A DNA stretch of 64,000 bases from an uncultured Alistipes sp. (GTDB lineage: Bacteria > Bacteroidota > Bacteroidia > Bacteroidales > UBA932): contig UQUN01000010.1 of the NCBI GenBank assembly GCA_900544175.1, positions 3,392 through 67,391 on the forward strand, read 5' to 3'. Positions 17,773-34,400 of the stretch are shown here, piece by piece (position 1 is the first letter of the stretch; each line of letters opens with the position of its first letter). The position numbers and the translations under genes were made by a program. The notes beneath the pieces are model-generated. The model was not told where the DNA came from. It did not search any database and worked only from the letters and a program-made list of their open reading frames with translations.

Positions 17773-19470
17773 ATGACAAGAAAACTTATTGAGTGCGTCC
17801 CCAATTTCAGCGAGGGACGCGATATGCAGGTTATCAAGCAGATAACAGACGCAGCCGAGAGTGTCGAAGGCGTAAGGCTGCTCGATGTCGACCCGGGTGC
17901 CGCCACCAACAGGACGGTGGTGACATTCGTAGGCGAACCGGAAAAGGTCATGGAGGCCGCTTTCCGTGCCGTGAAAAAGGCTTCTGAGCTCATAGACATG
18001 AGGCATCATCATGGTGAGCATCCCAGAATGGGAGCTACGGACGTATGCCCTCTCGTACCTATTGCAGGTGTCACTATGGAGGAGTGCGTGGAATATGCCC
18101 GCAGTCTTGCAAAAAGGATAGGTGATGAACTCGGTATTCCTGTATTCTGCTATGAGAGTGCGGCATTTGTTCCCGAGAGAAGGAATCTGGCAGTATGCCG
18201 CAGCGGCGAGTACGAAGGGTTGGCAAAGAGATTTGAGGATGGGGTGAAGCCAGACTTCGGTCCGGCCGTAATCGATGACTATACTGCCCGTACAGGAGCC
18301 ACTGCAGTGGGTGCAAGGGATTTTCTTGTAGCGATCAACTATAATCTGAATACCACTTCTACGCGCAGGGCCAACTCCATAGCATTTGACGTGCGCGAGA
18401 AAGGACGTAAGAAGAGAGAGGGGGATCCCATTACAGGCAAGGTGGTGAAGGATGAGAACGGCAATGTCGTATGGATTCCCGGTACACTGAAGGGCTGCAA
18501 GGCCATAGGCTGGTATATAGAGGAGTACGGTATCGCTCAGGTGTCGATGAATGTCACCAATATCAATGTGACTCCTGTGCATGTAGCTTTCGATGAGGTA
18601 TGTGAGAAAGCCCATGCCCGCGGCATCAGGGTGACCGGTTCCGAGATAGTAGGTCTCATTCCCAAGAAAGTGCTCATCGATGCCGGCAAGCATTATCTGG
18701 CGAAACAGAACCGCTCCTGCGGTATTCCTGAGGAGGACATCGTGAAGATCGCCGTCAAGTCCATGGGTCTGGACGACCTGAAGCCATTCAATCCCCGCGA
18801 GAAGGTGATCGAATATATACTTGAGGACAGTGACAAGACTCCCAAGCTGGTAGACCTGACTGTACGTGGCTTTGCCGAGGAGACCTCCCGTGAGTCTCCG
18901 GCTCCAGGCGGCGGATCCATCTCGGCTTATATGGGATCTCTCGGCGCTGCTCTCGGTGCGATGGTTGCCAATCTGTCTTCGCACAAGAGGGGCTGGGATG
19001 ACCAGTGCCCCAAGTTCTCCCAGTGGGCTGAGAAAGGGCAGGAACTGATGTACGAGCTGTTGCACCTTGTGGATGAGGATACTGCCGCATTCAACCGCAT
19101 CATGGACGCCATGTCCCTGCCCAAGAAGACCGACGAGGAGAAGGCTGCCCGTGCAGCTGCGATGCAGGATGCCACTCTATATGCTACGGAGGTGCCATTG
19201 AGGACCATGAAGGCTTCTTTCAAGGTTTTCGAACTTGTAGAGGCCATGGCTTCCGAGGGTAATCCCAACTCCGTATCCGATGCAGGTGTTGGTGCTCTCG
19301 CAGCCCGCTCGGCAGTCCTTGGAGCTTTCCTCAACGTCAGGATCAATGCAGCCGGACTGAAAGACCGCGAGAAGGCCGATGCTCTCGTAGCTGAGGCGTC
19401 TGCCATTGCGGAAGAAGCTGTTAAACAAGAGGCTAAGATTATCGAAATCGTTAACTCCAAGATAGGGTAG
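17773..19470 (+). CDS. ftcD: Bifunctional glutamate formimidoyltransferase / formimidoyl-THF cyclodeaminase
   Basis: N-terminus LIECVPNFSEGRD (formiminotransferase). C-terminal about 200 aa cyclodeaminase-like (...SVSDAGVGALAARSAVLGAFLNVRIN...). Confidence 0.85.
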   Translation: MTRKLIECVPNFSEGRDMQVIKQITDAAESVEGVRLLDVDPGAATNRTVVTFVGEPEKVMEAAFRAVKKASELIDMRHHHGEHPRMGATDVCPLVPIAGVTMEECVEYARSLAKRIGDELGIPVFCYESAAFVPERRNLAVCRSGEYEGLAKRFEDGVKPDFGPAVIDDYTARTGATAVGARDFLVAINYNLNTTSTRRANSIAFDVREKGRKKREGDPITGKVVKDENGNVVWIPGTLKGCKAIGWYIEEYGIAQVSMNVTNINVTPVHVAFDEVCEKAHARGIRVTGSEIVGLIPKKVLIDAGKHYLAKQNRSCGIPEEDIVKIAVKSMGLDDLKPFNPREKVIEYILEDSDKTPKLVDLTVRGFAEETSRESPAPGGGSISAYMGSLGAALGAMVANLSSHKRGWDDQCPKFSQWAEKGQELMYELLHLVDEDTAAFNRIMDAMSLPKKTDEEKAARAAAMQDATLYATEVPLRTMKASFKVFELVEAMASEGNPNSVSDAGVGALAARSAVLGAFLNVRINAAGLKDREKADALVAEASAIAEEAVKQEAKIIEIVNSKIG

Positions 19471-19542: not shown

Positions 19543-20499
19543 ATGAGAATTATAGGAACTGGTAGTGCCCGCCCTTCTAAGGTCGTAACAAATGCGATGC
19601 TGGAGGATTTTCTGGATACCAGCAACGAGTGGATAGTGACCCGTACGGGTATCAGGGAGAGGCGGCTCATCTCCTCCGAGAGTCTGGAGGAACTGGCAGC
19701 AGCCGCCGCCCGCAGTGCTATGGAGAATGCCGGGATAACACCGGAGCAGGTAGACTTCATAATCTGCTCCAATGTGGTGAACGAGTACGTGACTCCGGGG
19801 TTGGGCTGTGTCGTGCAGGGCATGATAGGTGCTGCCTGTCCCACAGTGGACATCAACTGTGCCTGCACCGGTTTTATCTACGCGCTGGACATTGCCGAGG
19901 CGTATCTTGCGACCAAGGACATGAGAAACATCCTTATAGTCTGTGCCGAGGAACCGTCCCGCATGATGAACTGGCACGACCGTTCCTCCTGCATCCTTTT
20001 CGGGGATGCGGCCGGGGCAGTGGTTGTCACTAAAGGGGATGACCTCAAGGCCATCCGTGTATCCACCCACTGCAAGGTGGAGGCTCTCTACCAGAAGCGC
20101 AGACTTCAGCCTACGCCTTTCCTGACCAAGGAGGAGACGGACACTGACGGTGTGGTCATGAACGGTCAGGATGTGTTCAAGCTCGCTGTATCATCATCCA
20201 TCAAGGATATAGACAAGGTGCTGGCCATGGCCGGCATGAAAGCCGATGACATCGACCTGTATGTGCTGCATCAGGCCAATGTGCGTATCATCGAGTCCAT
20301 CCGGCACTTCGTCAATCAGGACAGAAGCAAGTTCCCGTTCAACCTGGACAGGTACGGGAACACTTCTTCCGCATCCATTCCCGCCCTGTTGGACGATCTT
20401 AACAGAGGCAATCAATTGAAAACAGGAGAAATGTTGTTGCTTAGTGCGTTCGGAGCCGGATTCACTACCGGGGCATGTATTCTCCGCTGGTCAAAGTAA
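19543..20499 (+). CDS. fabH: 3-oxoacyl-ACP synthase III (KAS III)
   Basis: 318 aa. Active-site Cys context NCACTGF, downstream His (YVLHQAN) and Asn (GNTSSAS) of the FabH triad. Confidence 0.85.
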   Translation: MRIIGTGSARPSKVVTNAMLEDFLDTSNEWIVTRTGIRERRLISSESLEELAAAAARSAMENAGITPEQVDFIICSNVVNEYVTPGLGCVVQGMIGAACPTVDINCACTGFIYALDIAEAYLATKDMRNILIVCAEEPSRMMNWHDRSSCILFGDAAGAVVVTKGDDLKAIRVSTHCKVEALYQKRRLQPTPFLTKEETDTDGVVMNGQDVFKLAVSSSIKDIDKVLAMAGMKADDIDLYVLHQANVRIIESIRHFVNQDRSKFPFNLDRYGNTSSASIPALLDDLNRGNQLKTGEMLLLSAFGAGFTTGACILRWSK

Positions 20500-20510
20500 A
20501 ACAAAACTAT

Positions 20511-21776
20511 ATGGAAAAAAGAGTAGTAGTGACAGGTATGGGAGTGGTCTCACCTGTCGGAAATAACGTGGAGACTTTCTGGAAGAGCATTGTCAACGGA
20601 GTCTGCGGTATTGATTACATTACCCAGTTCCCGACTGACGGGCTTTCAGTGAAGATTGCAGGTGAGGTCAAGGATTTCAGGCCGGCCGACTACGGCATCG
20701 AACCTAAGGCGGCCAGGAAGTTTGACCGGTTCAGTCTCTTTGCTCTTGCAGCCGCCAATCAGGCCGTGGCAATGAGCGGACTCAGGTCCACAGATGACGA
20801 GGAAGACAAAACGCCCGGCACTGTCCTGGCTGACCGTTTCGGAGTCTATATCGGCTCCGGGATCGGAGGTATGCACTCTTTTGTCAACGAGACTACAAAG
20901 TTGATTAAGGACGGTCCTCAGTGGATATCGCCTTTGTTCATCCCTACGATGATCGCGAATATTGCTGCCGGCAATGTGGCCATTGCGCATCATGCCAAGG
21001 GCGTATGCCTGCCTATAGTGACTGCCTGTGCTACCGGGACCCATTCCATAGGGGAGGCGTACAGGGCTGTCAAGTACGGTTATGCAGATGCAATAATAGC
21101 CGGAGGTACCGAAGCGGCCGTTACTCCTCTGGCCATAGGAGGATTTTCCAACAGCAAGGCTCTGTCTCCCGCCGAGGATCCGATGGCTGCCTCCCTGCCT
21201 TTCGATGCCCGCCGTCAGGGGTTCGTAATCGCTGAAGGTGCCGGAGTTCTGGTTATCGAGGAATACGAGCATGCGATGGCACGCGGAGCTAAGATATATG
21301 CCGAACTGTGCGGTTATGGCAATACCTGTGACGCTTATCACTACACGGCGCCCTGTCCGGACGGCTCCACACCTGCCAAAGCATTCAGACAGGCCCTGAC
21401 CGAAGCCCATTATTCGACGTCAGATCTGCTGCATATCAACACCCATGGTACTGGTACACCTCTGAACGACAAGTCCGAGACAGCGGCCATCAAGCTTGCC
21501 CTCGGTGAGACCGAGGCCCGTCGCGCCATTCTCTGCTCCACCAAGTCCATGACAGGACACGCGCTTGGAGCGGCAGGAGGCATCGAGGCTGTCGCTGCAG
21601 TCATGGCACTTCACGACGGTGTGGTTCCGCCTACCATCAACTACAAGGAACCTGATCCCGAATGTGACCTGGATGTCAATCCCAACCATGCCCGGGAGGC
21701 TGCGCTGACCATGGCCCTGTCCTCTTCGCTGGGCTTCGGAGGCCATAATGCAGTATTGGCATTCAGACGTTTATAA
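20511..21776 (+). CDS. fabF: 3-oxoacyl-ACP synthase II (KAS II)
   Basis: Start at MEKRVVVTGMGVVSP. Active-site Cys (ACATGTHS) and HTHGTGT / H..G His motifs. Confidence 0.9.
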   Translation: MEKRVVVTGMGVVSPVGNNVETFWKSIVNGVCGIDYITQFPTDGLSVKIAGEVKDFRPADYGIEPKAARKFDRFSLFALAAANQAVAMSGLRSTDDEEDKTPGTVLADRFGVYIGSGIGGMHSFVNETTKLIKDGPQWISPLFIPTMIANIAAGNVAIAHHAKGVCLPIVTACATGTHSIGEAYRAVKYGYADAIIAGGTEAAVTPLAIGGFSNSKALSPAEDPMAASLPFDARRQGFVIAEGAGVLVIEEYEHAMARGAKIYAELCGYGNTCDAYHYTAPCPDGSTPAKAFRQALTEAHYSTSDLLHINTHGTGTPLNDKSETAAIKLALGETEARRAILCSTKSMTGHALGAAGGIEAVAAVMALHDGVVPPTINYKEPDPECDLDVNPNHAREAALTMALSSSLGFGGHNAVLAFRRL

Positions 21777-21805
21777 GCAGTATCAATCACTAAAACCAAA
21801 CTGAA

Positions 21806-22237
21806 ATGGATAGAGAAGAGATCAAGCAGTTTCTCCGTCATCGTGAGCCGATGCTTCTGGTTGACGAGATGGAACTTCAGAACGGAGGCACAGAATGTGT
21901 CGGAAAGTATCACGTCAGAGGTGACGAATTCTTCCTCCAGGGGCATTTCCCCGGCTATCCGGTAGTGCCCGGAGTCATCCTCTGCGAGATTATGGGGCAG
22001 TGCAGCTCCTTGCTTATCAAGGATTATTTGGTAGGTCACACAACCTTGTTCACTGGCATTGACAAGACCCGTTTCAAGCATCAGGTCCATCCTGGCGATA
22101 CGGTAGAGGTGCATGCTCACATCACAAATCACCGGGCCATGCTTTTTTATATCGATGCAAAGGCATATGTGGGTGGTGAGATATGTGTCGAGGCCAGTCT
22201 TTCATTTGCAGTGATACCCAACGATAAAGTAAAATAA
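21806..22237 (+). CDS. fabZ: 3-hydroxyacyl-ACP dehydratase (hot-dog fold)
   Basis: 143 aa. FFLQGHFPGYPVVPGVILCE catalytic His motif of FabZ/FabA. Confidence 0.85.
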   Translation: MDREEIKQFLRHREPMLLVDEMELQNGGTECVGKYHVRGDEFFLQGHFPGYPVVPGVILCEIMGQCSSLLIKDYLVGHTTLFTGIDKTRFKHQVHPGDTVEVHAHITNHRAMLFYIDAKAYVGGEICVEASLSFAVIPNDKVK

Positions 22238-22239
22238 TT

Positions 22240-22989
22240 ATGCTGGAAGGATTATTAAAAGGCAGGGTGGCCCTGATTACCGGAGCTGCCCGTGGAATAG
22301 GCAAGGCTATTGCCATGAAACTGGCTTCAGCCGGAGCCGACATTGCTTTCACGGACCTCAGAGAGGACGACAATTTCAGGAATACAGTGGCTGAGATTAC
22401 AGCTCTTGGAGTGCAGTGCCGTGGCTATGCCTCAAATGCGGCGGACTTTGCCGAGGCTCATGCAACTGTAGACCAGATACTGAAGGACTTCGGTCATATC
22501 GACATTCTGGTCAACAATGCCGGCATTACCCGTGACGGCCTGATGATGAGGATGTCCGAGCAGCAGTGGGACAGTGTGATTACAGTCAACCTCAAGAGCG
22601 CGTTCAACTTTACGCATGCACTGACTCCCATCATGGCCCGTCAGAGAGGTGGCAGCATCATCAACATCTCTTCTGTTGTGGGCGTGAACGGCAATGCCGG
22701 ACAGTGCAACTACTCCGCTTCCAAGGCCGGTCTGATCGGTCTGGCCAAGTCCATAGCCAAGGAGATGGGCTCGCGCGGTATCCGTGCAAATGCCATTGCT
22801 CCCGGATTCATAATCACGGACATGACGAATGCTCTGCCTCAGGAGGTCCGTGACGAGTGGAACAAGAAGATACCCCTCCGTCGCGGCGGCACACCCGAGG
22901 ATATCGCCAATGTGGCTCTCTTCCTCGCATCCGACCTTTCCTCATATGTTACAGGTCAGGTCATAATCTGCGACGGCGGCATGCTGTAG
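22240..22989 (+). CDS. fabG: 3-oxoacyl-ACP reductase (SDR)
   Basis: 249 aa. TGAARGIG cofactor motif, NNAG, catalytic S...YSASK. Confidence 0.85.
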   Translation: MLEGLLKGRVALITGAARGIGKAIAMKLASAGADIAFTDLREDDNFRNTVAEITALGVQCRGYASNAADFAEAHATVDQILKDFGHIDILVNNAGITRDGLMMRMSEQQWDSVITVNLKSAFNFTHALTPIMARQRGGSIINISSVVGVNGNAGQCNYSASKAGLIGLAKSIAKEMGSRGIRANAIAPGFIITDMTNALPQEVRDEWNKKIPLRRGGTPEDIANVALFLASDLSSYVTGQVIICDGGML

Positions 22990-23031
22990 CCTCTTCCTGC
23001 TGCAGTCGGCAGTGTAAGATGCAGAAACAGA

Positions 23032-23064
23032 AAGAGTCCGGATCTGTTCCGGACTCTTCTTTTA
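23032..23064. terminator. Bidirectional hairpin terminator between convergent fabG and the BACON-thioredoxin lipoprotein gene
   Basis: AAGAGTCCGGA-tctgt-TCCGGACTCTT followed by TTTT on plus, A-rich on the other side. Confidence 0.65.
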
Positions 23065-23088: not shown

Positions 23089-24522
23089 TCAGTCTTCGTA
23101 TTCGAAGATGGCGAAGTTGTTGATCTTTATGTCTACGACGTTGTCTGTCACATATCCGGTCCCGGTTTGGAAGCCGTATATGGCGTAGTCCACTGATCCC
23201 TTATACGTGTCCTCGTAGTTGACGATGGCAACGATGTGGAGGTTTTCAGGATTCTCGACATCCTGGGGAACAGGGCAAGTCAGTTCGACATTGTTGATTT
23301 CACCGCCTGTCAGCTGGATAGGGTCTCCCCACATCTCGGTAACCTCGGCTCTTACCACATTGTCGTGGATGTATCTGCTGCCTCCATTTGACTGGTATGC
23401 GACGATGCTGTCCTCAAGTACCAGGACACTTATCCTGTAGTTGCCGGATTCCTTTGCACCTATTCCAAGGCTGATTTCAATGTTGTCTCCGTTGAGGTTG
23501 ACTATTCCGCCGATGGCTGTGTTGGCCGGCAGTTCTTCCACTGCTTCTTTGGCGAGGTCGGCAAAGAGTCTTCTTACGATGCTTCCAGACGAATTCTCAA
23601 CGCGTGCGTAGCTGTTCACGAGTCCTACAGGGATGTAGCCGTAGTTGAGGTAGCGGTAGTACTGGTTACTGCCGTCCCACTCCAGTTCGCTGCCGCCATC
23701 ATAAGAGATGTGCATGTTAACCGGGACTAAGTGGTTGGGGTAGTCTTCTATGGCTCCCATCAGAGACTCATTCATGCTGGGGCAGTTGGGGCATCCTGTA
23801 GCGGTGAAGCGGATCGCAAGGGAGCGTCTGAGGAAGGTCCTGCTGAAGTCGGCCTTGAGGTCGCCCATCTGCGATACAGTGATTGTAGCAGTTGTCATTC
23901 CGTCCTTTCCGTTGAGCGTCAGGACAGTCTCGCGTACTTCTCCGGAGTTGTTCTCGTCTTCTATGTTTGCTTCTGCGGAGAGACTGATAGTGTATGTCTT
24001 TAGCTGCGAGTATGTCGTGTTGTCGGAGAGGAGTGTGGAATCTGTGGCTGCGCAGGAATTGACGGTGAGCCATTCAGCTTCAGTGGTGACGTCAAAGCCG
24101 ACATTAGACCGGAGACTTATTGAGAAGTCCGTTGCATCCCCGCTGATAGATACGGACTGGCTCGCTATTGAAAAGCCGGGAGTGGGGTCCTGCACCACAA
24201 AGTACTGGGTGGTCACTCCTGCCTCTTCGATGTTGATACTGCCGACTCTTTCCTGGAGGTCGGAATTGATGTCAAGGATTGTGAATGACAACTCGTTTGT
24301 GCCTGCCGCTCCGGAGAGTGGAGTGATCGCGAACCATGTGGATGTGTTCTTGCTTACCTTCCACTCGTCCTCGAAGGGCATTCTTACTGTCAGAGTGGTG
24401 TCACTGACATTGGGCAGAAATATGGTTGAACCCGAAATGACAGGAGTCTCTGTATTGTCGGTGCATGCCGCAAGGCAGAGAGCAGCTGCGATACTTGCAA
24501 ACAAGATGTTTATCTGTCTCAT
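23089..24522 (-). CDS. Lipoprotein: N-terminal BACON-like Ig domains plus C-terminal Omp28-like thioredoxin-fold domain with CPNC motif (paralog 1)
   Basis: Start at MRQINILFASIAAALCLAAC (lipobox); the track ORF is extended upstream. ...IRFTATGCPNCPSMNES... CxxC after a beta-strand, YIPVG cis-Pro-like loop. C-terminal FAIFEYED. Confidence 0.7.
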   Translation of the reverse strand: MRQINILFASIAAALCLAACTDNTETPVISGSTIFLPNVSDTTLTVRMPFEDEWKVSKNTSTWFAITPLSGAAGTNELSFTILDINSDLQERVGSINIEEAGVTTQYFVVQDPTPGFSIASQSVSISGDATDFSISLRSNVGFDVTTEAEWLTVNSCAATDSTLLSDNTTYSQLKTYTISLSAEANIEDENNSGEVRETVLTLNGKDGMTTATITVSQMGDLKADFSRTFLRRSLAIRFTATGCPNCPSMNESLMGAIEDYPNHLVPVNMHISYDGGSELEWDGSNQYYRYLNYGYIPVGLVNSYARVENSSGSIVRRLFADLAKEAVEELPANTAIGGIVNLNGDNIEISLGIGAKESGNYRISVLVLEDSIVAYQSNGGSRYIHDNVVRAEVTEMWGDPIQLTGGEINNVELTCPVPQDVENPENLHIVAIVNYEDTYKGSVDYAIYGFQTGTGYVTDNVVDIKINNFAIFEYED

Positions 24523-24533
24523 GCTGGTATGTT

Positions 24534-26114
24534 TTAAAGTGCGACGATGAGTGATAGGTTGACACCTGTGTATGCAGGGGTCATGCGGCAAACGCCTCCG
24601 GAGCAGAGGTAACCTTCCTTGAAGCGTCCGAAGTTGAGGGCTGCCCTGACTTTGGAGTATGAATAGCTTACCGAGCCGTTGATGTAGTGTGTCTTTGTGT
24701 CCCCGTAGTTCCACATGTCCTGGATCGAGATGCTCCATCTCGGTGCGAAACTGTACTCGAGGAGGGCTGCTGCCCAGCTCTTGTGGTCCTGCTTCGTGTA
24801 CAGGTGCTGAAGTTCAAGCCGCAGGGAGTTCTTTCTGTCGAACTTATAGGTCATGTCGGCCACGACTGTGTGGGAGTTCCACATGTCCGTTCCTTTGGAG
24901 ATGGCCTGCGAGTTGAGGGTCTGCCAGGAGTAGAACAGGATCATCTTGAAGTCGCTTCCGAACCATCTTTCGATGTCTATTGTAAGGTCTCTGAACAGCA
25001 GTTCGTCATTGCCTCTTACACCTGTCATCATGTCCAGTATGCCGCCGTAGTAGGTCGAGAAGTTGGCATGTACTTTCATGCCTTTCTTGCCGCCCATGGC
25101 TGTACCTCTCCTGAAGTTGTAGTAAAGGTCGGCCTGTCCTCCGATCTCATCGTTCTGGGCCGTGTAGGGGTTCAGTGTGGCGAGGGCATAGGTATGCTGC
25201 TGTGTGAGGGCAGGTACGTAGTTGATGAACGTCCAGATGTCGGACGGTCCGTTGTTCCTGATACCCTGAAGCATAGGGTTGTTGAGCTTTCTGAATGTCA
25301 GCAGTCCGCCGAATCCGTTGCCGGTGTAGCTGAAGTCTACCTGGATGGCCTCGCTTCTGGTGGAATCGAGACTGTTGTAGAATCCTGGATCGGCTTTTCT
25401 GCTCATGTATTCGCCGCTGAGACGGAAGCCTGCGTAACCGAGACTCATCCTCGCTGAGTAGCCGAACGTATGTGGATTCATGCCCTCGATGGTCACGGGC
25501 TCGTACTTGTCGAGTACGCTTCCCTCGACTGTCCAGTCGAAGTTGTCCCAGTTGGCTGCCCTGGATATCGACAGTGACAGGTCCGCTCCGGCGACGGTGT
25601 TGCTGGTGTATTCCTGAATGTCCCGGATCCTTCCGTACAGACCCTTGATGGTGAGGAAGTCCCCGAATGTGTAGCCTACCTTGACACCCTGTATTGCATT
25701 GTTTATACCCAGAGTCCTGTCTTCGTAAGTCCTGAAGAGAAGTCCGCTACCGAACTGCTCGTGTATGCTTCCTATCCTCACGTCCCAACCGTTGGCCGCA
25801 TATCCGGCATACAGGTCATATCTCATGAAGTTCTCGCTCATGATGTTGTCAGGGAAGTATCCTGCAATGGGGGGAAAGTAGCCTTCCATCTGAAGGCCGG
25901 CGTAGAATCCTTTCCAGGAGTAGTCCAACTTGAGGTAGTTGTTGGACCCCATGTGTCCGTCCGGATTGTAGGAATTTGTTTTCTCGTCTTTGAAGTAGTA
26001 GGTGGTATTGGTCTCCAGACCAGCAGAAAAGTTGCCCTTGTCCTCGTTCTGGGCAAAGGCAACTATCCCTGTCAGAGCCAAAAGACCTACTGCAGTCGTA
26101 AATCTTTTGAGCAT
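24534..26114 (-). CDS. DUF6029-like outer-membrane beta-barrel protein
   Basis: 526 aa, signal peptide, amphipathic strand pattern throughout, C-terminal ...NLSLIVAL. Sits 4 nt after tlpA and 11 nt before paralog 1. Confidence 0.5.
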   Translation of the reverse strand: MLKRFTTAVGLLALTGIVAFAQNEDKGNFSAGLETNTTYYFKDEKTNSYNPDGHMGSNNYLKLDYSWKGFYAGLQMEGYFPPIAGYFPDNIMSENFMRYDLYAGYAANGWDVRIGSIHEQFGSGLLFRTYEDRTLGINNAIQGVKVGYTFGDFLTIKGLYGRIRDIQEYTSNTVAGADLSLSISRAANWDNFDWTVEGSVLDKYEPVTIEGMNPHTFGYSARMSLGYAGFRLSGEYMSRKADPGFYNSLDSTRSEAIQVDFSYTGNGFGGLLTFRKLNNPMLQGIRNNGPSDIWTFINYVPALTQQHTYALATLNPYTAQNDEIGGQADLYYNFRRGTAMGGKKGMKVHANFSTYYGGILDMMTGVRGNDELLFRDLTIDIERWFGSDFKMILFYSWQTLNSQAISKGTDMWNSHTVVADMTYKFDRKNSLRLELQHLYTKQDHKSWAAALLEYSFAPRWSISIQDMWNYGDTKTHYINGSVSYSYSKVRAALNFGRFKEGYLCSGGVCRMTPAYTGVNLSLIVAL

Positions 26115-26118
26115 AATT

Positions 26119-26607
26119 CTACTGAAGTTTTAAGATTTGGTCAAAAAGTTCCTCCTCGCTGCCTGGAGTATAGCCGGTGTGAGTGTAGACGATCTTGCCT
26201 TCCCTGTCGAGAATGAACACGGTGGGCTGTGTCTGTACGTTCATGGCTCTCTTGAGGTCTCCGTTCTCGTCAAGCAGAATGGTGAAGTCGGTCCAGCCTC
26301 TGCCGTTGACCATAGGTTTTACCTTGGCGCTCGACCTTGAGTCGTCTGTAGCGACAGCCACTACCTTGAACTCGGCCTCTTCGATCCAGTCCACATAAGC
26401 GTCGTTGACGGCTCCGAGCTCCTGAAGGCAGGGCTTGCATGTGGTATACCAGAATGAAAGTATTACAGGTACTCCGTCCTCCATGATGGACTGGACGTTG
26501 ACCGCATTTCCGTCGATGTCCTTCACCTCAACGCTGGGCAGGTCCTTCTGTGCCCATGCAAGACAGGGGAGAAGCAGTGCGGCAGCTAAAAATAGAAATC
26601 TTTTCAT
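26119..26607 (-). CDS. tlpA: TlpA/ResA-family periplasmic thiol-disulfide oxidoreductase
   Basis: 162 aa, signal peptide, ILSFWYTTCKPCLQE thioredoxin CxxC, cis-Pro region TQPTVFILD. Confidence 0.8.
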   Translation of the reverse strand: MKRFLFLAAALLLPCLAWAQKDLPSVEVKDIDGNAVNVQSIMEDGVPVILSFWYTTCKPCLQELGAVNDAYVDWIEEAEFKVVAVATDDSRSSAKVKPMVNGRGWTDFTILLDENGDLKRAMNVQTQPTVFILDREGKIVYTHTGYTPGSEEELFDQILKLQ

Positions 26608-26622
26608 CTTTATTGTAGTGTG

Positions 26623-28056
26623 TTAGTTTTCGTATTCGAATTCAACAGAGCCTCCTACGGGGATGTCTATTACGTTGTCGACGATGTAGCCGTAGTCATC
26701 ATATATGACGTTTCCGTTGTTGAACTGGCCGGTGTATGCTCCCTCGTAGGTGGTAAAGGCCACTACGTGCAGATTCTCGGTGTCCTTGACGGTACCTGGT
26801 ACAGGTATGCTCAGGTTTACATTGTACATGCCGTTCGTTGAGAGATATGCAGGGTCGCCGAAATGTTCGGTGAGTACGGAACGCACTACGTTGCTGTGCT
26901 CGTAGTTGTATGGATCAGGGACGATGCCCGTGTAGTCTGACTGTGTTCCGATGATTCCGTCCTCAAGCAGGAATACGGAGATGAAGTAGTCCCCGGCCTC
27001 TTTGGAGGCTATGTAGAGGTCTACTGTCAGGTTGGAACCGTTGATGGCTGCGGAGCCGATTATGCCAGTGTTGGAAGGCAGGTTCTCGACGGCGTCCTGG
27101 GCCACCCCTACAAATGCGCCTGCTGTTATCGCCGTGCTGTTGTTGTTGATTGTAGAGTAGTAGTTCTCTATGGCTGTGGGGAATCCGGCGATATCAAACT
27201 GATTCATGTATTCATTGACATAGTTGAAGCTGAGAGCTCCCGATCCCTGATACATGTTCATGGCGACTATGCGGTCGGGATACTCCTCGATGGCCTGGTG
27301 CAGGCTTTCGTTCATCATGGGGCAGTATCCGCACCAGTTTCCGGTGAATCTGATTACGAGAGAGCGGCGGAGGAAATTCCTGGAGAAATCCTCACCCATA
27401 TTGGGTTTCTGCTCGAATGTGACTGTTCTCTCGATACCTTTCTCACCGGTAAAGGTGACTCTTGCAAGACGAGCCTCCTCACCTGTGTTTGCAGCAATGG
27501 ACATGGATGCTGTGTATGTTTTGTACTTCGAAGCAGTCGTTCCGTCAGCGAGCAGGTCCGAAATGGACGAGATCTCACCGAATGTCAGCCAGTCAGAGGA
27601 GCTTGTGATGGTAACGTCGCCGACATTGGCCATGAACTCGAACTCTGTGCCGCTAAGCTCGCTTCCGCTGAAGGAATATGAGTCGGCCAGTTCGAATCCG
27701 GGATTTACATCCTGAATGACATAGTATGTCGTCTCTTCTGTGCCGGAAATGATCGTGAATGTTCCTACTCTCTCAGCCATGTCCTCATTGTACTGAAGGC
27801 ATTTTATGGTGATATCTGTGGTGCCGGCCTCTCCTGAGAGTGGCACTATGGAGAACCAGTCAGCGTTGCAGCTGGCCTGCCATGCGCTTTCGAATTCAAT
27901 AGGTACGGTAATAGTTGTGTCAGCAGCATTGGGCAGCATTATCGATGTGCCTTGTATCAATGTGTTCTGACCTCCTTCCGTGCAGGAAGTCAAGGCTGCG
28001 GAAAGACCTGCCGTGCAGAGTCCGCAGAGGATAATCGGTTTGAAAAAACGTTTCAT
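26623..28056 (-). CDS. Lipoprotein: BACON-like domains plus Omp28-like thioredoxin-fold domain with CGYC motif (paralog 2)
   Basis: MKRFFKPIILCGLCTAGLSAALTSC lipobox. ...IRFTGNWCGYCPMMNES..., GFPTAIEN cis-Pro loop. C-terminal VEFEYEN. Confidence 0.7.
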   Translation of the reverse strand: MKRFFKPIILCGLCTAGLSAALTSCTEGGQNTLIQGTSIMLPNAADTTITVPIEFESAWQASCNADWFSIVPLSGEAGTTDITIKCLQYNEDMAERVGTFTIISGTEETTYYVIQDVNPGFELADSYSFSGSELSGTEFEFMANVGDVTITSSSDWLTFGEISSISDLLADGTTASKYKTYTASMSIAANTGEEARLARVTFTGEKGIERTVTFEQKPNMGEDFSRNFLRRSLVIRFTGNWCGYCPMMNESLHQAIEEYPDRIVAMNMYQGSGALSFNYVNEYMNQFDIAGFPTAIENYYSTINNNSTAITAGAFVGVAQDAVENLPSNTGIIGSAAINGSNLTVDLYIASKEAGDYFISVFLLEDGIIGTQSDYTGIVPDPYNYEHSNVVRSVLTEHFGDPAYLSTNGMYNVNLSIPVPGTVKDTENLHVVAFTTYEGAYTGQFNNGNVIYDDYGYIVDNVIDIPVGGSVEFEYEN

Positions 28057-28138
28057 ATAAAAATAAGTATTAGTATTGTCTTCCTAATTATCACTAATGA
28101 TTATGCAAATATAATTTTTTTTGTGATTTGCAGTACGT

Positions 28139-30139
28139 TTACTGACGGCTGTTTTTATAATTTTCAAGACCCTGTTTCAGGAAAGCCACGAACTCATTGA
28201 TGTCGAGATTGTAGCTTCTCGGGTCGGCCAGGAGCTCTCCGTCACGGCCTTCGAGGACATAGCAGGGCTGTGCGTTGACACCGTAGTAGGTATAGGCTAT
28301 ATAGGAATTGATCTTGCCTATGTCCTTCAGCGTCCTGTCACCGGCTGTAATCCAGTCACTCTCGTCGGCCTCCTTCTTGTCATCGCAGTACAGTGCTACT
28401 AAAACATAGTCATTGCGGAGTATCTCCAGTACCTTGGGGTCGGACCACACTCGGTTCTCCATCTCGCGGCAGTTGACGCAGCCGTGGCCGGTGAAGTCTA
28501 TGAACAGGGGCTTGCCCACGCTCTCCGCGTAGGCCCTGGCCTCTTCCAGCTCGAAGAAGCCCTGAAGGTTGTGCGGAAGATGGAGGAAGTCGCTGTATTT
28601 TGGTGCCTTACCTTCTGTTGAAGTCTGCGTTGCAGCCGATCCTGCCGTGCTGCCAGTCACTATCACCGGAGCCTCGTCCCCGAGAATGAAATCCTGAGTC
28701 GTGAGCGGGGGCAGATATCCGGACAGAGCCTTCAGCGGAGCACCCCACATACCCGGAATCATATACACCACGAAGGAGAACACCACTATCACCAGTGTCA
28801 GACGGCCCACTCCGATATGCTTGACCTCGTCGTCATGTGCAAAGCGGATCTTGCCCAACAGATATAGCCCCAGAAGGGTAAACACCACAATCCATATCGC
28901 CAGGTACACTTCCCTGTCCAGCAGTCCCCAGTGATAGGTCTGGTCGGCCACGGAGAGGAACTTGAAGCCCAGAGCCACCTCGACGAAAGCGATGACCACC
29001 TTCACGCTGTTGAGCCAGCCGCCGCTCTTAGGCAGCTTCTTGAGTACGGAAGGGAAGAGGGCAAACAGCGTGAAAGGAAGAGCAAATGCGACAGAGAAAG
29101 CCAGCATGGTGATAATCGGCTCCCAGAACTCTCCCTGAGTAGACTTGATAAGAACTGAACCGACTATAGGTCCCGTACAGGAGAATGATACCAGCACCAA
29201 GGTCAGAGCCAGGAAGAAAATTCCTCCGAGGCCCTTGGTGTCCGCCTTGGAATCGGACTTGTTGACCAGCTTTGAAGGCATGGTTATCTCGAATGCTCCG
29301 AAGAACGAAGCCGCGAATATCATGAATACTATGAAAAATATGATATTGGGCAGCCAGTGGGTCGAAAGCCAGTTGAAAATGTCCGCTGTGACGGCATCGC
29401 CTCCGACTATTCTGGTAATGAGAATGATTGCCGCAATAGGTAGAGTATACAGCATGACAATGAACAGTCCGTACATTGCCGCACGTATACGTCCTCGGGC
29501 CGGACCGCCTTCACCTTTGAGGAAATATGACACGGTCATAGGCACCATAGGGAACACACATGGTGTAAGCAGGGCTACAAAACCCCAGATGATGGCCTCC
29601 AGTATCAGACCCCACAGGCTCTTGCTCCTGCCTGTCTCCTCATCATCTCCGGCAGGAGAGACGGACACGCCGTCCGGCAGGCTGATGGAAAGCGTCTGAT
29701 CGGCCAGCGGCAGGCAGTTGTTGTCGTCGCACGCCATCCATTCCACATAGACGTTTACCTGGGCGTTTTTCTTCTTGAGACGGATATCCTGGTAGAAAGT
29801 CACGCTGTCCTCGAAATATCCGATCTCCATCATGTAGATGTCGTCGTAATATCTGAACGGTTCTGAGGATATCTGCATGTCTCCCTCTTTCACTGCTCTT
29901 TTATTGTCTGCGATCGTGAAGTCCACAATCGTGGCGTTAGGACCGAATTCAGTCCGCAATGTGTCATATATATGCCAGGTAGAGTCAATGATAGCAGTTA
30001 CAGAAACCCTGTAAAGATTCTTGCCGAGTTCCTCTACGTCTGTTCTCCAATGTGCGTGCTGCTCCTGTGCGTTGACGGATAATGTTGGAAAGATTATCAT
30101 GGCGATCAATCCAACGATGACCGATATACCTTTTTTCAT
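28139..30139 (-). CDS. dsbD: Protein-disulfide reductase DsbD (alpha-beta-gamma, full length)
   Basis: Start at MKKGISVIVG. Periplasmic alpha domain with CDDNNC. 8-TM beta core with TPCVFP and SCTGP Cys. C-terminal thioredoxin gamma domain FTGHGCVNCREME. Confidence 0.85.
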   Translation of the reverse strand: MKKGISVIVGLIAMIIFPTLSVNAQEQHAHWRTDVEELGKNLYRVSVTAIIDSTWHIYDTLRTEFGPNATIVDFTIADNKRAVKEGDMQISSEPFRYYDDIYMMEIGYFEDSVTFYQDIRLKKKNAQVNVYVEWMACDDNNCLPLADQTLSISLPDGVSVSPAGDDEETGRSKSLWGLILEAIIWGFVALLTPCVFPMVPMTVSYFLKGEGGPARGRIRAAMYGLFIVMLYTLPIAAIILITRIVGGDAVTADIFNWLSTHWLPNIIFFIVFMIFAASFFGAFEITMPSKLVNKSDSKADTKGLGGIFFLALTLVLVSFSCTGPIVGSVLIKSTQGEFWEPIITMLAFSVAFALPFTLFALFPSVLKKLPKSGGWLNSVKVVIAFVEVALGFKFLSVADQTYHWGLLDREVYLAIWIVVFTLLGLYLLGKIRFAHDDEVKHIGVGRLTLVIVVFSFVVYMIPGMWGAPLKALSGYLPPLTTQDFILGDEAPVIVTGSTAGSAATQTSTEGKAPKYSDFLHLPHNLQGFFELEEARAYAESVGKPLFIDFTGHGCVNCREMENRVWSDPKVLEILRNDYVLVALYCDDKKEADESDWITAGDRTLKDIGKINSYIAYTYYGVNAQPCYVLEGRDGELLADPRSYNLDINEFVAFLKQGLENYKNSRQ

Positions 30140-30381
30140 TAATCGATTAATTATTTTAATATGTTTACAAAAAACGTCCAAAGGTATAAAACCATGTTAA
30201 AAAAACAAAATTTGATAACAGTTTTTCACGAAAATCAATAAAATGATTTGCTGAAACTTATGTCATCAATTAAAATGAACGTATATAGTTAAAGTAAAAA
30301 CGTTACAAATTTATACAAAAACTCAACAAAACTCCAAATTCTGAGAAAAAAATATTGACCATTTAATCGTTCGTTTTATAT

Positions 30382-31827
30382 ATGAGGCAAATTTGGTCGT
30401 CGTGCTACATTTTTGTCACGGCTGTGTTACTTTTGTCAGTCATTACGTCGTGTCAGGAGTCTCGGATTCCTGGAACTCTTTCTTCTGGGGCTACATTCGT
30501 GGTGGAGTCATCCGAAGGCAGCCTTGATACTGTAAAGCTGGATTTCAACGGGCCATGGGAGGTCGTGTCGTCCCCTGAATGGTGCTCCGTGTCGCCTGCG
30601 GAAGGCAATGCCGGTCCATGTGTCCTGACAGTTACAGCAACATCTGCCAATACTGCACTGCATGAAAAGGAAGGCATTGTCTCAATCATGGTCAATGCCG
30701 GAGATGAAGTCTCCTGTTATGTTGTTCAGCGTGGGGAGGACGGAATATCCCTGATTTCCGACGCTGGTCTGTATGTCTCTCCCGATGAGGGATCTGAGGT
30801 AAGGATATCCATTGAGGGCAATACTGCGTTTGACGAGTCGTCTTTGTCTTCTGACGTGGACTGGCTGACGTATCGAGGTGTGGAGATTACGTCGGACTCG
30901 CTTGTCCTTGGCGATGGAGAGACTGTCTCAGAGTATTACACTGCGGATATAATTCTTGCTGCCGGAGAGAACGCTTCCGGAAGTCTGCGGAGTGGTTACG
31001 TGTCCGTAGGCGGGGATGAGGTTGCGGTCACTCAGGTTGTATCGCCTGAGTGGAGCAGGGATTTCTACCGTCACAGCGCCATGATCAAGATTACTGCCAC
31101 ATGGTGTACCAACTGTCCTCTCATGGAGGTTGCTTTCGGAATAGCTGACGAGCAGATGCCCGGTCGGATAGTCCCGATGAACATGCACAGGACGGACTCC
31201 GATGGCGGGCTTGGATGGAGCGGTACGGACACGTTTGAGAAACTGTACAGCGTCGCTTCAGTTCCTATGGTGGCCTTCAACGGATTTGCAAAATTCCAGA
31301 GTCTCAACTCTCCGTCGTCGACAGCGATGCTTATGACCAGAGTGGCTGAAGAGGCAGTGCAGAATTTCCCTTCAAGGACCAATATCATGGCTGCGGCTTC
31401 ATTGACCGACAGGGACATAAGGATAGACGCCTTTGTCGCGGCCAAGGAGGGTGGAGATTATCTGCTTGCAGCGTATGTGCTTGAGGACAGTATCATAGGA
31501 TTTCAGGACGACGCTCACGGTATCGTGGAGGATCCTTATCATTATGTGCACAGGCATATCGTCAGAGGTTCTCTCACAGAGCTCACGGGGGATCCGGTAC
31601 CGGCTGTGTCGGACGGGGAGATGGCTCACATTATCATAAACGGGGAACTTCCGTCCAGTGTCTCAGATCCGTCAAACACTTATATAGTACTGTATGTCTC
31701 GACGCCAGGGGATCCGGACATGAGTCTGTGTACGGTACCGTCCGTCAACTATGCATCGTCCGGCTACGTGATTGACAACGTGACTACCGTGCAGATGAAC
31801 GGCTTTACTGACTTCCAGTACGAATAA
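30382..31827 (+). CDS. Lipoprotein: BACON-like domains plus Omp28-like thioredoxin-fold domain with CTNC motif (paralog 3)
   Basis: MRQIWSSCYIFVTAVLLLSVITSC lipobox. ...IKITATWCTNCPLMEV..., SVPMVAFNG cis-Pro loop. C-terminal FTDFQYE. Confidence 0.7.
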   Translation: MRQIWSSCYIFVTAVLLLSVITSCQESRIPGTLSSGATFVVESSEGSLDTVKLDFNGPWEVVSSPEWCSVSPAEGNAGPCVLTVTATSANTALHEKEGIVSIMVNAGDEVSCYVVQRGEDGISLISDAGLYVSPDEGSEVRISIEGNTAFDESSLSSDVDWLTYRGVEITSDSLVLGDGETVSEYYTADIILAAGENASGSLRSGYVSVGGDEVAVTQVVSPEWSRDFYRHSAMIKITATWCTNCPLMEVAFGIADEQMPGRIVPMNMHRTDSDGGLGWSGTDTFEKLYSVASVPMVAFNGFAKFQSLNSPSSTAMLMTRVAEEAVQNFPSRTNIMAAASLTDRDIRIDAFVAAKEGGDYLLAAYVLEDSIIGFQDDAHGIVEDPYHYVHRHIVRGSLTELTGDPVPAVSDGEMAHIIINGELPSSVSDPSNTYIVLYVSTPGDPDMSLCTVPSVNYASSGYVIDNVTTVQMNGFTDFQYE

Positions 31828-31874: not shown

Positions 31875-34400
31875 TTGTTTATGAACAAGTTTATTAAAAT
31901 TGCTGCAATTGCTTTTTCTCTGGCGCTTCTGTTCAGCGCCTGCCGCGAGAATGAGACTACATCCTCGCAGATAAAAGCGACTACGCTGGAGATCCCCGGA
32001 GATTCCGGAGAGTACGTGCTGCCCTACAGTATTGAGGGCTATGCCGACGGATCGTCCCTTACAGCTACCACCGAGTCCGAGTGGATAAGCATAAGTGAGA
32101 TAACCCAGGGGCAGGAGGGTGAGATTACGTTCACTGCCGGCCGCAATGACGGTCAGCCAAGGCAGGGCCGCATCATTCTGAGGTATCCGAATGCCCCCGA
32201 CCTTACGGTGGCCGTCAACCAGTACACCTACGGCGTGGAGGATGGTACTCCACTGATGATAGAAGTCAGTGTGCTTTCTCCCTACAGCGCGGAGGTGACC
32301 TATACGCCCATCAGTTACGACGGAGGATATTTCTTCCTGGTTATGGGAGCGGAGGACTTTGACCTGTATCTTCAGAACGACAACATGGAGGGCCTTCTGG
32401 AGTCCGACCTGGAGTGGATCCAGTATCAGGCGGACTACAATGGCATGACTATTGGCGAATTCCTGGGACGCGCCCCTCAGGTGTACACTGACAGCCGCGA
32501 GCCGAATGTCCAGTTGTACAACGACCTGGAGCGTGAGAGCGACTACTATGCCTACTGCTACGGTCTCAGCCTTACCGGAGAGGCCCTGACAGAGGTTCTG
32601 TACAAGGAGTTCCGCACGGAGGTCGTCCAGACTGTGGACATGACCTTCGAAGGCGAGGCGACTGACATCACTCTGGAGTCGGCGCACACTGCGATCCATC
32701 CCTCGACGGATGAATATACATATTACTGGACATATGTGTCTTCGATGGACATGGCCCAGTACGACCTTTACACCATCATGGACAATATGATTCTGAACCT
32801 GCGCGCCGCCAGTGAGGAGAGCGGCATGCCTCTCTCCGAGTATCTCTGCAAGGGAGACTACGAGGCGGACGCCACTGATCTTTGGGCCGGTACCGAGTAC
32901 ACCATAGTGGCATGGGGCATGGATGAAGGTGGCTCTCCCACAACTGAGCCTCAGGAAGTGTTCAGTTTCAACACGCCGAGAGAGGAGATCGTGGACGACT
33001 GCACCTTTGAGATTACGTGCCCTCAGGTCGAATCCATGGATATTCTGGTGAACATAGTACCCTCCAATCCGGAGACACGCTATTACATAGCTGTGATCGA
33101 TTCGGCTACGGCCTACGGCTATAATGACGAGCAGATGGCCCAGCGCATCATCAACATGGAGAGCCAGCGCCTTATGGATGGCTTCTACGGCGATGATCAG
33201 AACTGGACCAACTTCGAGTCCCTCTATACGGGCGAGCAGAGCAAGTGGGCACGTGCTGACCTGTACTGGCAGAAAGTGAATCCCAACACACTGATGCACA
33301 TATACGTGTTCGGTGTCAGCACGCGCGGTGAGCGCACCACCGCTGTGGCCCGTCTGGACCAGCGCACCGCTGAGGCCGACAAGTCTGACATGACATTCGA
33401 TGTGAGCGTTGTGGAGGAGAACTGGCAGGGAGGCACCTACAAGGTCGTTCCGAGCAACGACGAGGACTTCTGGGTGCCGTTCATGGTGCAGAGCTCCGAC
33501 CTTGACCTGTTCCGCAAAGGAGACGGTACCCTGAACGAGCAGCTTCTCATGGACGAGATAACCCATTATTATGACAATACCGTGTCATATTATGTAAGAC
33601 AGGGTGAAAATGATGTATACTTCTCCTGCATCTCCGACCGTGACTACACCCTGCTGACCTTCGGCTGGGCCGGCACCAATACGACACCTTTCTATGAGTT
33701 CGAGCATCATACCCCGGCCATACCTTTCGGACAGAGTGATGCTGAGATGACGGCCAGCTACGAACTTTTCGACGGTGCGGAGCTGTATGCAATGGATCCC
33801 GAGCGCTGGGAGGGAAGTCAGGAGGACTGCGTGATGTACATCAAGTTCAACCCCAATGACAAGGCTGTCCACTGGTACGGCGGTGTATGGGCTCCTGAGT
33901 CAGCTTATCAGGATGTAGGCGGAGTATACCAGCTGCTGATACTGATCATGAATCCTGTCGCCTCGTTCGTGGACCAGCCGACTGGCACTATCAGGCCCTG
34001 GTTCGACAATACCTGGAGTTTCTCCTACGTGGCCGAGGGAGCTGACGGAACATTCGGCGAATGGCATTACGAAGAGTTTACTCCCCAGCGCGGCGTGAAT
34101 ATGGACGAACCTTACGATTTCTGGAGCAATCCTTCACAGAACAGCGTGATCGTCAACATCCCCAAGGACTATAAGGAGCGTGCGGAAGCTATGCTCATTG
34201 AGGATGCCAAGGCTGCTCTCAGGAATCCCGTTCCGGTAAATATTGTCACCGGTCCGGAGTTCGATCCCATGGGCCGCTATATCGCACCTGACATCACAGC
34301 GGAGAAAACGGCAAACGGAGTCTCGCTGCATAACTGGAAGGACGGTCTCGACAGCCGTATGGTATTCCATCGTGACGGAGAGCGTCATGTGTCCTTATAA
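31875..34400 (+). CDS. Large surface lipoprotein (841 aa), N-terminal BACON-like domain, remainder unassigned
   Basis: SpII signal (LALLFSAC). BACON-like block ...WISISEITQGQEGEITFTAGRNDGQPRQGRIILRY...TVAVNQ. Acidic, Tyr/Trp-rich body with no recognisable catalytic motif. Confidence 0.55.
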   Translation: MFMNKFIKIAAIAFSLALLFSACRENETTSSQIKATTLEIPGDSGEYVLPYSIEGYADGSSLTATTESEWISISEITQGQEGEITFTAGRNDGQPRQGRIILRYPNAPDLTVAVNQYTYGVEDGTPLMIEVSVLSPYSAEVTYTPISYDGGYFFLVMGAEDFDLYLQNDNMEGLLESDLEWIQYQADYNGMTIGEFLGRAPQVYTDSREPNVQLYNDLERESDYYAYCYGLSLTGEALTEVLYKEFRTEVVQTVDMTFEGEATDITLESAHTAIHPSTDEYTYYWTYVSSMDMAQYDLYTIMDNMILNLRAASEESGMPLSEYLCKGDYEADATDLWAGTEYTIVAWGMDEGGSPTTEPQEVFSFNTPREEIVDDCTFEITCPQVESMDILVNIVPSNPETRYYIAVIDSATAYGYNDEQMAQRIINMESQRLMDGFYGDDQNWTNFESLYTGEQSKWARADLYWQKVNPNTLMHIYVFGVSTRGERTTAVARLDQRTAEADKSDMTFDVSVVEENWQGGTYKVVPSNDEDFWVPFMVQSSDLDLFRKGDGTLNEQLLMDEITHYYDNTVSYYVRQGENDVYFSCISDRDYTLLTFGWAGTNTTPFYEFEHHTPAIPFGQSDAEMTASYELFDGAELYAMDPERWEGSQEDCVMYIKFNPNDKAVHWYGGVWAPESAYQDVGGVYQLLILIMNPVASFVDQPTGTIRPWFDNTWSFSYVAEGADGTFGEWHYEEFTPQRGVNMDEPYDFWSNPSQNSVIVNIPKDYKERAEAMLIEDAKAALRNPVPVNIVTGPEFDPMGRYIAPDITAEKTANGVSLHNWKDGLDSRMVFHRDGERHVSL

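Follow-up and report, generated by a model that had tools for sequence, protein, structure and literature searches.

What are the three related lipoproteins encoded in a 64,000-nucleotide stretch of DNA from an uncultured Alistipes sp. (contig UQUN01000010.1; the whole stretch is called the window below), and why does each carry a different pair of residues between the two cysteines of its CxxC motif? An earlier note on this DNA had described them as diverged paralogs with a common layout and a thioredoxin-like active site, and had read the motifs as deliberate diversification of redox potential or substrate range, not recent duplication. The proteins, here called OmpL1, OmpL2 and OmpL3, are firmly identified as thioredoxin-fold lipoproteins of the Omp28/HBP35 type in which the active-site signature is conserved. 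As new members they join an already known family (Pfam Omp28), and their genes lie with those of a DsbD-type electron transporter, a TlpA-like protein and a DUF6029 barrel.

Omp28-type lipoproteins with a thioredoxin active site

The common layout is borne out by the three open reading frames. OmpL2 and OmpL3 align end to end with OmpL1 at 41% and 31% identity, and each protein has a lipobox after a hydrophobic h-region (LAAC in OmpL1, LTSC in OmpL2 and ITSC in OmpL3), a Pfam BACON match near the N terminus, and a match to Pfam Omp28 (PF11551). The Omp28 scores of 80.5, 70.2 and 61.0 bits for OmpL1, OmpL2 and OmpL3 all pass the gathering threshold of 34.9 bits, and Pfam E-values of 1e-16 to 1e-22 place the resemblance far past chance. 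The block FSR.F.R.S..I..T...C..CP.M is present in all three proteins, the codons translate to a different dipeptide in each copy (CPNC, CGYC and CTNC), and the tails FAIFEYED, VEFEYEN and FTDFQYE occur as the earlier note had read them. The proline loop, which it gave as (V/F)P(T/V/M), is also present, although OmpL1 reads IPV and departs from V/F-P. Narrower models do not take the proteins in. NCBIfam NF033782 (Omp28 family outer membrane lipoprotein subfamily) has a curated cutoff of 150 bits, which the Porphyromonas gingivalis archetype passes with 318.8 bits; OmpL1 to OmpL3 reach 56.3, 45.5 and 23.6 bits. NF045500, for Omp28-related selenoproteins, asks for 200 bits plus selenocysteine in the redox motif; two paralogs score weakly (40.4 and 21.1 bits), OmpL3 gives no match to this model, and the motif codons of all three genes specify Cys, not selenocysteine.

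An AlphaFold2 model of OmpL2 (mean predicted local distance difference test, pLDDT, 90) contains two N-terminal beta-sandwiches (residues 33-115 and 120-216), a thioredoxin-type unit (232-325), and a C-terminal beta-sandwich (330-477). In the model, the unit runs strand-helix-strand-helix-strand-strand-helix (strand 232-238, helix 245-258, strand 263-269, helix 280-286, strands 294-297 and 301-304, helix 308-325), an order that qualifies as the superfamily fold, with C242 and C245 at the N terminus of the first helix. Pro293, invariant across a 45-sequence alignment, stands directly before the third strand. In sequence searches of the PDB, both thioredoxins and HBP35 of P. gingivalis align over the WCxxC region, and a Foldseek search with the model places HBP35 (5y1a) at the top (E 7.6e-11, 262 columns), followed as the next specific match by the DUF1223 structure 2axo. 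Together these results establish the CxxC region as the thioredoxin active site, as had been proposed. With the full-length model, most Foldseek matches (ciliary, cadherin, and titin proteins) reflect merely the tandem immunoglobulin (Ig)-like domains and were set aside. Outside the thioredoxin core, the beta-sandwich holds E365, Q372 and H387, which are invariant in the 45-sequence alignment, and the near-invariant R392.

The shared aromatic-acidic ending that the earlier note had singled out is real, but it closes internal domains as well and is not a separate C-terminal signal. In OmpL2 this tail is partly strand (469-471 and 475) and confidently placed in the model. In the fused homologs of Alistipes and Tidjanibacter, the motif [DE]-[FY]-x-[YF]-[acidic] ends every module and is followed by a linker; it thus marks where the beta-sandwich domain ends and does not require a free C terminus. 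Its presence at internal module ends rules out a sorting or partner-binding signal that needs one.

Among characterized proteins, HBP35 is similar in joining a thioredoxin fold to an appended beta-sandwich; its motif is WCGYCP, and identity in the structural alignment is about 16%. Recombinant HBP35 has thioredoxin activity in insulin reduction, which is lost on mutating its two active-site cysteines, and its conserved C-terminal domain has been proposed to serve cell-surface attachment (PMC2907840). A further report describes its secretion by the Por/type IX secretion system (PMC3120885). The OmpL proteins, unlike HBP35, are lipoproteins that end at the beta-sandwich. No type IX sorting domain was found at their C termini, where the modelled chain stops at the last beta-sandwich strands, and because a lipobox is present and the C-terminal domain is lacking, an identity as HBP35-like type IX cargo was ruled out.

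The namesake of the family, Omp28 of P. gingivalis (PG2173; PF11551; NF033782; PDB 2r2c), is a second point of comparison. Both it and the OmpL proteins are lipoproteins in which a CxxCP segment is followed by the Omp28 beta-sandwich, and they share the block LLED...Q...Y.H..V.R as well as a neighbourhood of tlpA-like, DUF6029 and omp28 genes. The corresponding YEHNHVLR block also occurs in structure 2r2c, a crystal that spans residues 108-290 only and so does not include the CxxC part. The OmpL proteins differ in their two extra N-terminal BACON/Ig-like domains (about 480 versus 290 residues), in occurring as three copies, in their linkage to DsbD, and in an NF033782 score far under the cutoff. 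DUF1223 (2axo) likewise combines a thioredoxin-like domain with an appended one, and OmpL1 has a weak Pfam match to it, under threshold; unlike the OmpL proteins, it is of unknown function and is not part of a lipoprotein cassette. Two further namesakes were discarded. The 'Omp28-related' trypsin-recruiting protein 00502 of Paraprevotella clara (PMC9477747) has a different architecture (WD40, five Ig-like domains, and a type IX sorting domain), and the 'Omp28' of Brucella and Salmonella is a coincidence of name only.

Lipoproteins exposed on the surface of Bacteroidota typically have BACON domains and, after the lipidated Cys, the acidic residues of the lipoprotein export signal. Each of the three OmpL proteins has an acidic stretch at this place. 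Across 136 lipoproteins of the family, Asp or Glu takes about 30% of positions +1 to +8 after this Cys. This acidic stretch and the BACON domains would fit the surface-export signal.

A cassette with DsbD, a TlpA-like protein and a DUF6029 barrel

The minus-strand operon has the order dsbD, OmpL2, tlpA-like, DUF6029, OmpL1, with 4-16 bp between genes, apart from the roughly 80 bp that follow dsbD. The Cys pairs of DsbD are C151/C156 (CDDNNC, in the N-terminal domain), C208/C335 in the transmembrane part, and C568/C571 (CVNC, in the C-terminal thioredoxin). The protein matches Pfam DsbD_TM and Thioredoxin_7 and scores 109.5 on NCBIfam PRK00293, under its cutoff of 330. Gene callers give a product of 666 residues on identical public contigs, which by arithmetic puts the start near window position 30139, not 30181. 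The TlpA-like protein matches the Pfam families AhpC-TSA (66.5 bits) and Redoxin (59.7 bits), and every NCBIfam equivalog model scores under its cutoff.

The DUF6029 protein matches Pfam PF19494 (gathering threshold 27 bits; a family of at least 1881 members) over its full length. Its AlphaFold2 model (pLDDT 89) has about 24 strands and in fold comes nearest to the ushers FimD and PapC, LptD, TonB-dependent transporters, and MtrB, at low template modelling scores (TM-scores) of 0.35-0.5. A Cys pair is invariant in this barrel. The motif C-[SA]-G-G-[VI]-C is present in 116/116 full-length homologs and at 45/45 genome loci, and in the model one of its cysteines stands on each side of the Gly-Gly turn in the last hairpin (strands 501-505 and 508-512). 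Invariant residues cluster in this hairpin and in two long loops (118-140 and 279-321). Outer-membrane barrels usually have both termini in the periplasm; under this topology, the last hairpin would lie on the extracellular side. 'External' loops are seldom so conserved, except where the lumen encloses them or a partner covers them. The best fold matches include the barrels of LptD-LptE, the FimD/PapC ushers and MtrCAB, all large barrels that work with a partner; DUF6029 is likewise modelled as a large plug-less barrel and is always found beside a lipoprotein gene. In contrast to these complexes, its pairing is known from gene adjacency, and identity is about 10% at the TM-scores given above. 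The only paper found to discuss DUF6029 reports an HHpred similarity to the Wzi barrel, suggests polysaccharide export, and is silent on the cysteines and the neighbourhood (PMC9603273).

The association of these genes is not peculiar to the window. A scan with one genome per species yielded 46 loci from uncultured Bacteroidales, Cryptobacteroides, Alistipes, Tidjanibacter and Rikenellaceae. DUF6029 adjoins an Omp28-type gene in 41 of them, the TlpA-like gene is nearly always present and DsbD often, and each locus has one to three Omp28-type modules, either encoded by separate genes or joined in proteins of about 990 residues. Searching from the DUF6029 side gave the same picture: an adjacent Omp28-type gene in 8/8 contigs inspected and an adjacent TlpA-like gene in 7/8. 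One locus (L052, 926-10902) holds two DUF6029 barrels in the order tlpA, DUF6029, 961-residue lipoprotein, DUF6029, three Omp28-type genes; its TlpA-like gene stands beside the DUF6029 copy that lies about 4.6 kb upstream.

The archetypal omp28 of P. gingivalis was found on a metagenome contig (L058). The encoded protein differs from PDB 2r2c at four of 183 residues (about 98% identity), scores the 318.8 bits on NF033782 given above, and has the motif FTGQKCLNCPKG (CLNCP). The gene order, tlpA-like (CKPC), DUF6029, omp28, is that of window positions 23089-26607. The DUF6029 protein ends ...NCSGGVCRVVPETQG..., and the barrel carries CSGGVC. Relative to this order, OmpL2 is placed upstream of tlpA, and OmpL3 is adjacent but divergent. 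It is thus firmly shown that the tlpA-DUF6029-omp28 core recurs across Bacteroidales, including the P. gingivalis omp28 locus.

Published work touches single members of this core. PG2173 is the Omp28 lipoprotein of P. gingivalis (PMC9722745), PG_2174, presumably its DUF6029 protein (with PG2175 as the presumed TlpA-like one), was detected in outer-membrane vesicles (PMC4335976), and Omp28 was among the proteins found solely in vesicles of H2O2-treated cells, a circumstantial observation (PMC12937337). We found no full-text paper that links Omp28, DUF6029 and a TlpA-like reductase, and the DsbD/TlpA/DUF6029/Omp28 cassette with its invariant barrel Cys hairpin seems undescribed.

Motif variation and paralog divergence

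A search of 1.84 billion representatives with a profile of the three window domains detected 4645 clusters at E <= 1e-3, and motifs were counted in the best 150 of these clusters, two of which are N-terminal fragments that leave 148 informative. CxxC is kept in 145 of the 148. Since it is retained to this extent and maps to the thioredoxin site, the doubt raised in the earlier note, that the cysteines might be mostly lost or replaced by Ser in orthologs or that the region might lie off the active site, falls away. The three remaining representatives (P0202, P0252 and P0258) have CSYD, CVYD and SSFD in an otherwise intact domain and are likely redox-dead variants.

Among the best 150, the dipeptide is GY in 55, GW in 19, GN in 12 and GF in 9; an x-N class of about 22 includes PN (5) and TN (2), and there are some 30 distinct dipeptides in all. 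Trp precedes the first Cys in 122 of the 145 motifs and Gly in 12, and an entire clade with GTGCGYCP has Gly at this position. The Gly of OmpL1, described before as unique, is therefore unique within the window but not in the family, and both 'unusual' window motifs are rare yet recurrent types. A subset of family members also has a second CxxC inside the C-terminal beta-sandwich (N-C-[YH]-[IV]-C-V-W or AEKCSICAL; P0028, P0035, P0037, P0040, P0042, P0045, L053 8043-9503, L056 3681-5120, and the fused proteins of L021, L023 and L026). In the single-module proteins of this kind, Thr or Ser replaces Trp before the first active-site Cys.

The four closest relatives (L053 to L056) show how unevenly the cassette has changed, with identities given to the window proteins and, for Omp28-type proteins, to the best window paralog. 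In L056, DUF6029 and TlpA are both 87% identical, against 46% and 37% for Omp28-type copies with TNCGYC and TSCGNC. The values in L053 are 81% (DUF6029), 91% (TlpA) and 82% (DsbD) against 37% (TSCGYC); those in L054 are 77%, 92% and 90% against 43% (NWCGYC) and 47% (TWCGWC); and in L055, DUF6029 is 74% identical and the Omp28-type copy 41% (TWCTNC). Identities of 37-47% for OmpL proteins versus 74-92% for their cassette partners firmly show that the former evolve much faster. An orthologous trio of motifs, which the earlier note had suggested looking for, is not kept: these relatives have one to three copies with the motifs listed.

The paralogs themselves are not of recent origin. In a bootstrapped neighbour-joining tree, OmpL1 and OmpL2 fall in one clade with all closest-relative copies (60/60), within which an OmpL2-type subclade has GY or GW (53/60) and OmpL1 pairs with the xN copy of L055 (47/60). 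OmpL3 lies outside this clade and enters it in merely 3/60 replicates. The split of OmpL1 and OmpL2 within the clade and the older lineage of OmpL3 agree with the view that the duplication is not recent. A grouping of all three window paralogs in a first neighbour-joining tree was overturned by this better-sampled one. In Alistipes and Tidjanibacter, an independent set of three modules keeps a motif class for each position, whether the modules are separate or fused: TWC[GPT][YN]CP in the first module, no Trp before the first Cys in the second (e.g. SVGCPNCP), and xxC[ST][FNW]CP in the third. Specialized modules therefore have some comparative support.

Do the dipeptides then matter at all? The strongest rival explanation holds that they are neutral: the lipoproteins would be redundant surface antigens that diversify under immune or phage pressure, with constraint limited to both Cys, the Pro and the fold. 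Very fast evolution does make it likely that they are exposed to host or phage pressure, and since the whole lipoprotein evolves fast, the change of dipeptide may belong to this general divergence. Positional orthologs in the closest genomes differ in both the dipeptide and the residue before the first Cys, copy number varies from one to three, and the number of dipeptides in the family is large. On the other hand, the dipeptides are non-random, with G-[YWFN] and x-N dominating, the OmpL2-type clade and the OmpL1/L055 pair each hold their class, and the three positional classes of Alistipes and Tidjanibacter persist across genera, even in fused proteins. We regard neutrality as unlikely, though still a serious possibility. 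The proposal of deliberate redox or substrate diversification survives in part: paralog lineages hold motif classes, but the window trio is not conserved and overall fast divergence is the dominant signal. Tuned redox potentials are plausible but only partly supported by the sequence comparisons. The GY-type OmpL2 and the xN-type OmpL1 and OmpL3 probably have different redox properties, different partners, or both, as a lineage-specific specialization.

Candidate functions of the cassette

The reading we favour, at a confidence poised midway between acceptance and rejection, is that the OmpL proteins are the variable outer parts of a DsbD/TlpA/DUF6029 envelope thiol-disulfide module and act as outer-membrane or surface oxidoreductases; their localization, the electron flow and the substrates we infer. 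DsbD would bring electrons across the inner membrane and the TlpA-like periplasmic reductase would hand them on. The recipients would be the DUF6029 barrel, with its invariant Cys hairpin placed extracellularly, and one or more partner Omp28-type lipoproteins, and at the outer membrane or cell surface, barrel and lipoproteins would reduce or isomerize disulfides or maintain thiols in the reduced state. The reducing pathways that run from DsbD to TlpA, ResA or CcmG offer a parallel, as the window too encodes a three-domain DsbD together with a secreted TlpA/ResA-like CxxC protein. Unlike those pathways, the window has no cytochrome-maturation, Sco or Msr client, and the conserved neighbours are a Cys-hairpin barrel and thioredoxin-fold lipoproteins.

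Several points weigh against this reading. The TlpA-like protein is periplasmic and the hairpin and lipoproteins would be outside, and a route for electrons across the outer membrane would be needed. The barrel Cys pair could be a purely structural disulfide, and the loss of Cys in three family members indicates that an Omp28-type scaffold can serve outside redox chemistry. OmpL3 is not part of the operon, three loci with OmpL genes (L011, L016 and L022) are without the cassette within the available flank, and the differing dipeptides of positional orthologs weaken the idea of tuned redox potentials.

An improbable alternative is ligand capture, in which the CxxC and the His, Glu, Gln and Arg of the beta-sandwich would bind haem or a metal that is handed to the DUF6029 channel, with TlpA and DsbD keeping the ligand cysteines reduced. 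HBP35, the closest structure, binds hemin and is required for growth at low hemin (PMC2907840). The conserved polar residues of the beta-sandwich and the YEHNHVLR block seen in 2r2c would suit a binding site, and a large barrel beside a lipoprotein recalls nutrient-uptake pairs. There is also a precedent in the Sco-type copper chaperones, whose ligand cysteines TlpA keeps reduced. Against ligand capture, W-C-x-x-C-P with a Pro loop is a catalytic thioredoxin signature, the curated selenoprotein branch of the family points to redox chemistry, the dipeptides and flanking residue vary freely, and Pfam searches of the locus found no TonB box, plug domain, or haem or metal gene nearby.

A bolder version of the envelope redox module would make DsbD, the TlpA-like protein, DUF6029 and the Omp28-type lipoproteins a thiol-disulfide relay across the outer membrane, a 'porin-thioredoxin' conduit with a logic like that of the MtrCAB porin-cytochrome complex. 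Cytoplasmic reducing equivalents would reach a surface thioredoxin-fold lipoprotein through the barrel, by way of the CSGGVC hairpin or of a partner threaded through the lumen, and the fast-evolving paralogs with their differing dipeptides would be alternative surface 'heads'. We consider this quite improbable. Likewise improbable is a periplasm-facing plug or assembly partner, by which the lipoproteins would dock in or under DUF6029 as LptE does in LptD and thiol chemistry would serve only the biogenesis or gating of the barrel hairpin: the usher- and LptD-like barrel model (barrels that house a partner), the periplasmic TlpA-like protein, the strong conservation of the Cys hairpin and loops L3 and L7, and the closely spaced adjacent genes speak for it, whereas the extracellular hairpin under standard topology, the surface-type acidic residues and BACON domains, a divergence that suits an exposed protein better than a buried plug, and the variable copy number (1 to 3) speak against it.

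Surroundings of the locus and implications

Human-gut metagenome contigs and the metagenome-assembled genome GCA_964322725.1 contain the identical locus. Two long hairpins bracket both transcription units (Table 1). The one after OmpL1 has a weak T-run on the minus strand and is likely the end of the minus-strand operon. Counts in the promoter and terminator scan were at chance level, and these two operon-end hairpins alone were used. Rfam searches gave no RNA element near the locus; the sole match was a thiamine pyrophosphate (TPP) riboswitch at 445-555, above the gathering score.

Table 1. Positions of cassette genes, flanking genes and other elements in the window
Feature	Position	Strand	Details
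OmpL1, Omp28-type lipoprotein	23089..24522	-	last gene of minus-strand operon; motif ATGCPNCPS, CPNC codons 23782-23793
DUF6029 outer-membrane beta-barrel, ~24 strands	24534..26114	-	C504-SGGV-C509 hairpin codons 24588-24605; Pfam PF19494 577.8 bits
TlpA/ResA-like secreted thioredoxin-fold protein	26119..26607	-	signal peptide; CKPC codons 26428-26439
OmpL2, Omp28-type lipoprotein	26623..28056	-	motif GNWCGYCPM, CGYC codons 27322-27333; protein chosen for modelling
DsbD-type membrane electron transporter	28139..30181	-	all three Cys pairs
OmpL3, Omp28-type lipoprotein	30382..31827	+	first gene of divergent plus-strand operon; motif ATWCTNCPL, CTNC codons 31105-31116
841-residue lipoprotein, N-terminal BACON domain	31875..34400	+	uncharacterized; co-directional with OmpL3
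850-residue lipoprotein, BACON x3 + leucine-rich repeats	34440..36992	+	last gene of plus-strand unit
Terminator-like hairpin, 11-12 bp	23031..23059	both	between OmpL1 and convergent fabG-like gene
13-bp hairpin then T-run	37022..37050	+	likely plus-strand operon end
FabH-like, FabF-like, FabA/ApeI-like and FabG-like gene set	19543..22989	+	directly adjoins cassette
Histidine-utilization-like genes	14937..19470	+
TPP riboswitch	445..555	-	Rfam RF00059, 63.9 bits
Antisense open reading frame, 600 residues	31764..33566	-	opposite the 841-residue lipoprotein gene

The plus-strand unit runs from OmpL3 through the 841-residue BACON lipoprotein to the 850-residue BACON lipoprotein with leucine-rich repeats. 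Distant relatives of the former (23-24% identity) flank the cassette in other genomes. More generally, large uncharacterized lipoproteins of about 640-980 residues adjoin it in many genomes (window 31875-36992, plus strand; L002 1850-7861, L053 3573-5861, L054 3538-5838, L040 4406-7348, L029 5449-8037, and L052 3039-5924). Some have an N-terminal BACON domain, one has leucine-rich repeats, and one has DUF4988; they are 23-28% identical within a clade, and BLAST finds no matches from one clade to another. Such proteins may serve the redox module as clients or co-receptors.

On the other side, the set of fatty-acid-type genes includes a FabA/ApeI-like dehydratase, and the Pfam ApeI-like match together with faint ApeP-like matches on the identical contigs suggests an aryl-polyene-type or specialized lipid pathway. 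Beyond it stand genes for an aromatic amino-acid lyase, an amidohydrolase and a formiminotransferase-cyclodeaminase, according to Pfam matches on the identical contigs. Long open reading frames of 250-600 residues also run antisense to real genes; they look like listing artefacts, because gene calls on the identical public contigs omit them.

If the cassette does work as a redox system of the outer membrane or cell surface, DUF6029 would gain a function, and so would Omp28, so far a named but unexplained antigen. Such a system would also explain why obligate anaerobes keep a DsbD-fed pathway without an obvious periplasmic client, and it would raise the question of how reducing power gets to the outer membrane. 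Should the relay across the outer membrane prove true, gut and oral Bacteroidales could reduce extracellular disulfides. The tlpA-DUF6029-omp28 core itself is conserved from uncultured Bacteroidales of the human gut to P. gingivalis, a genetically tractable pathogen.

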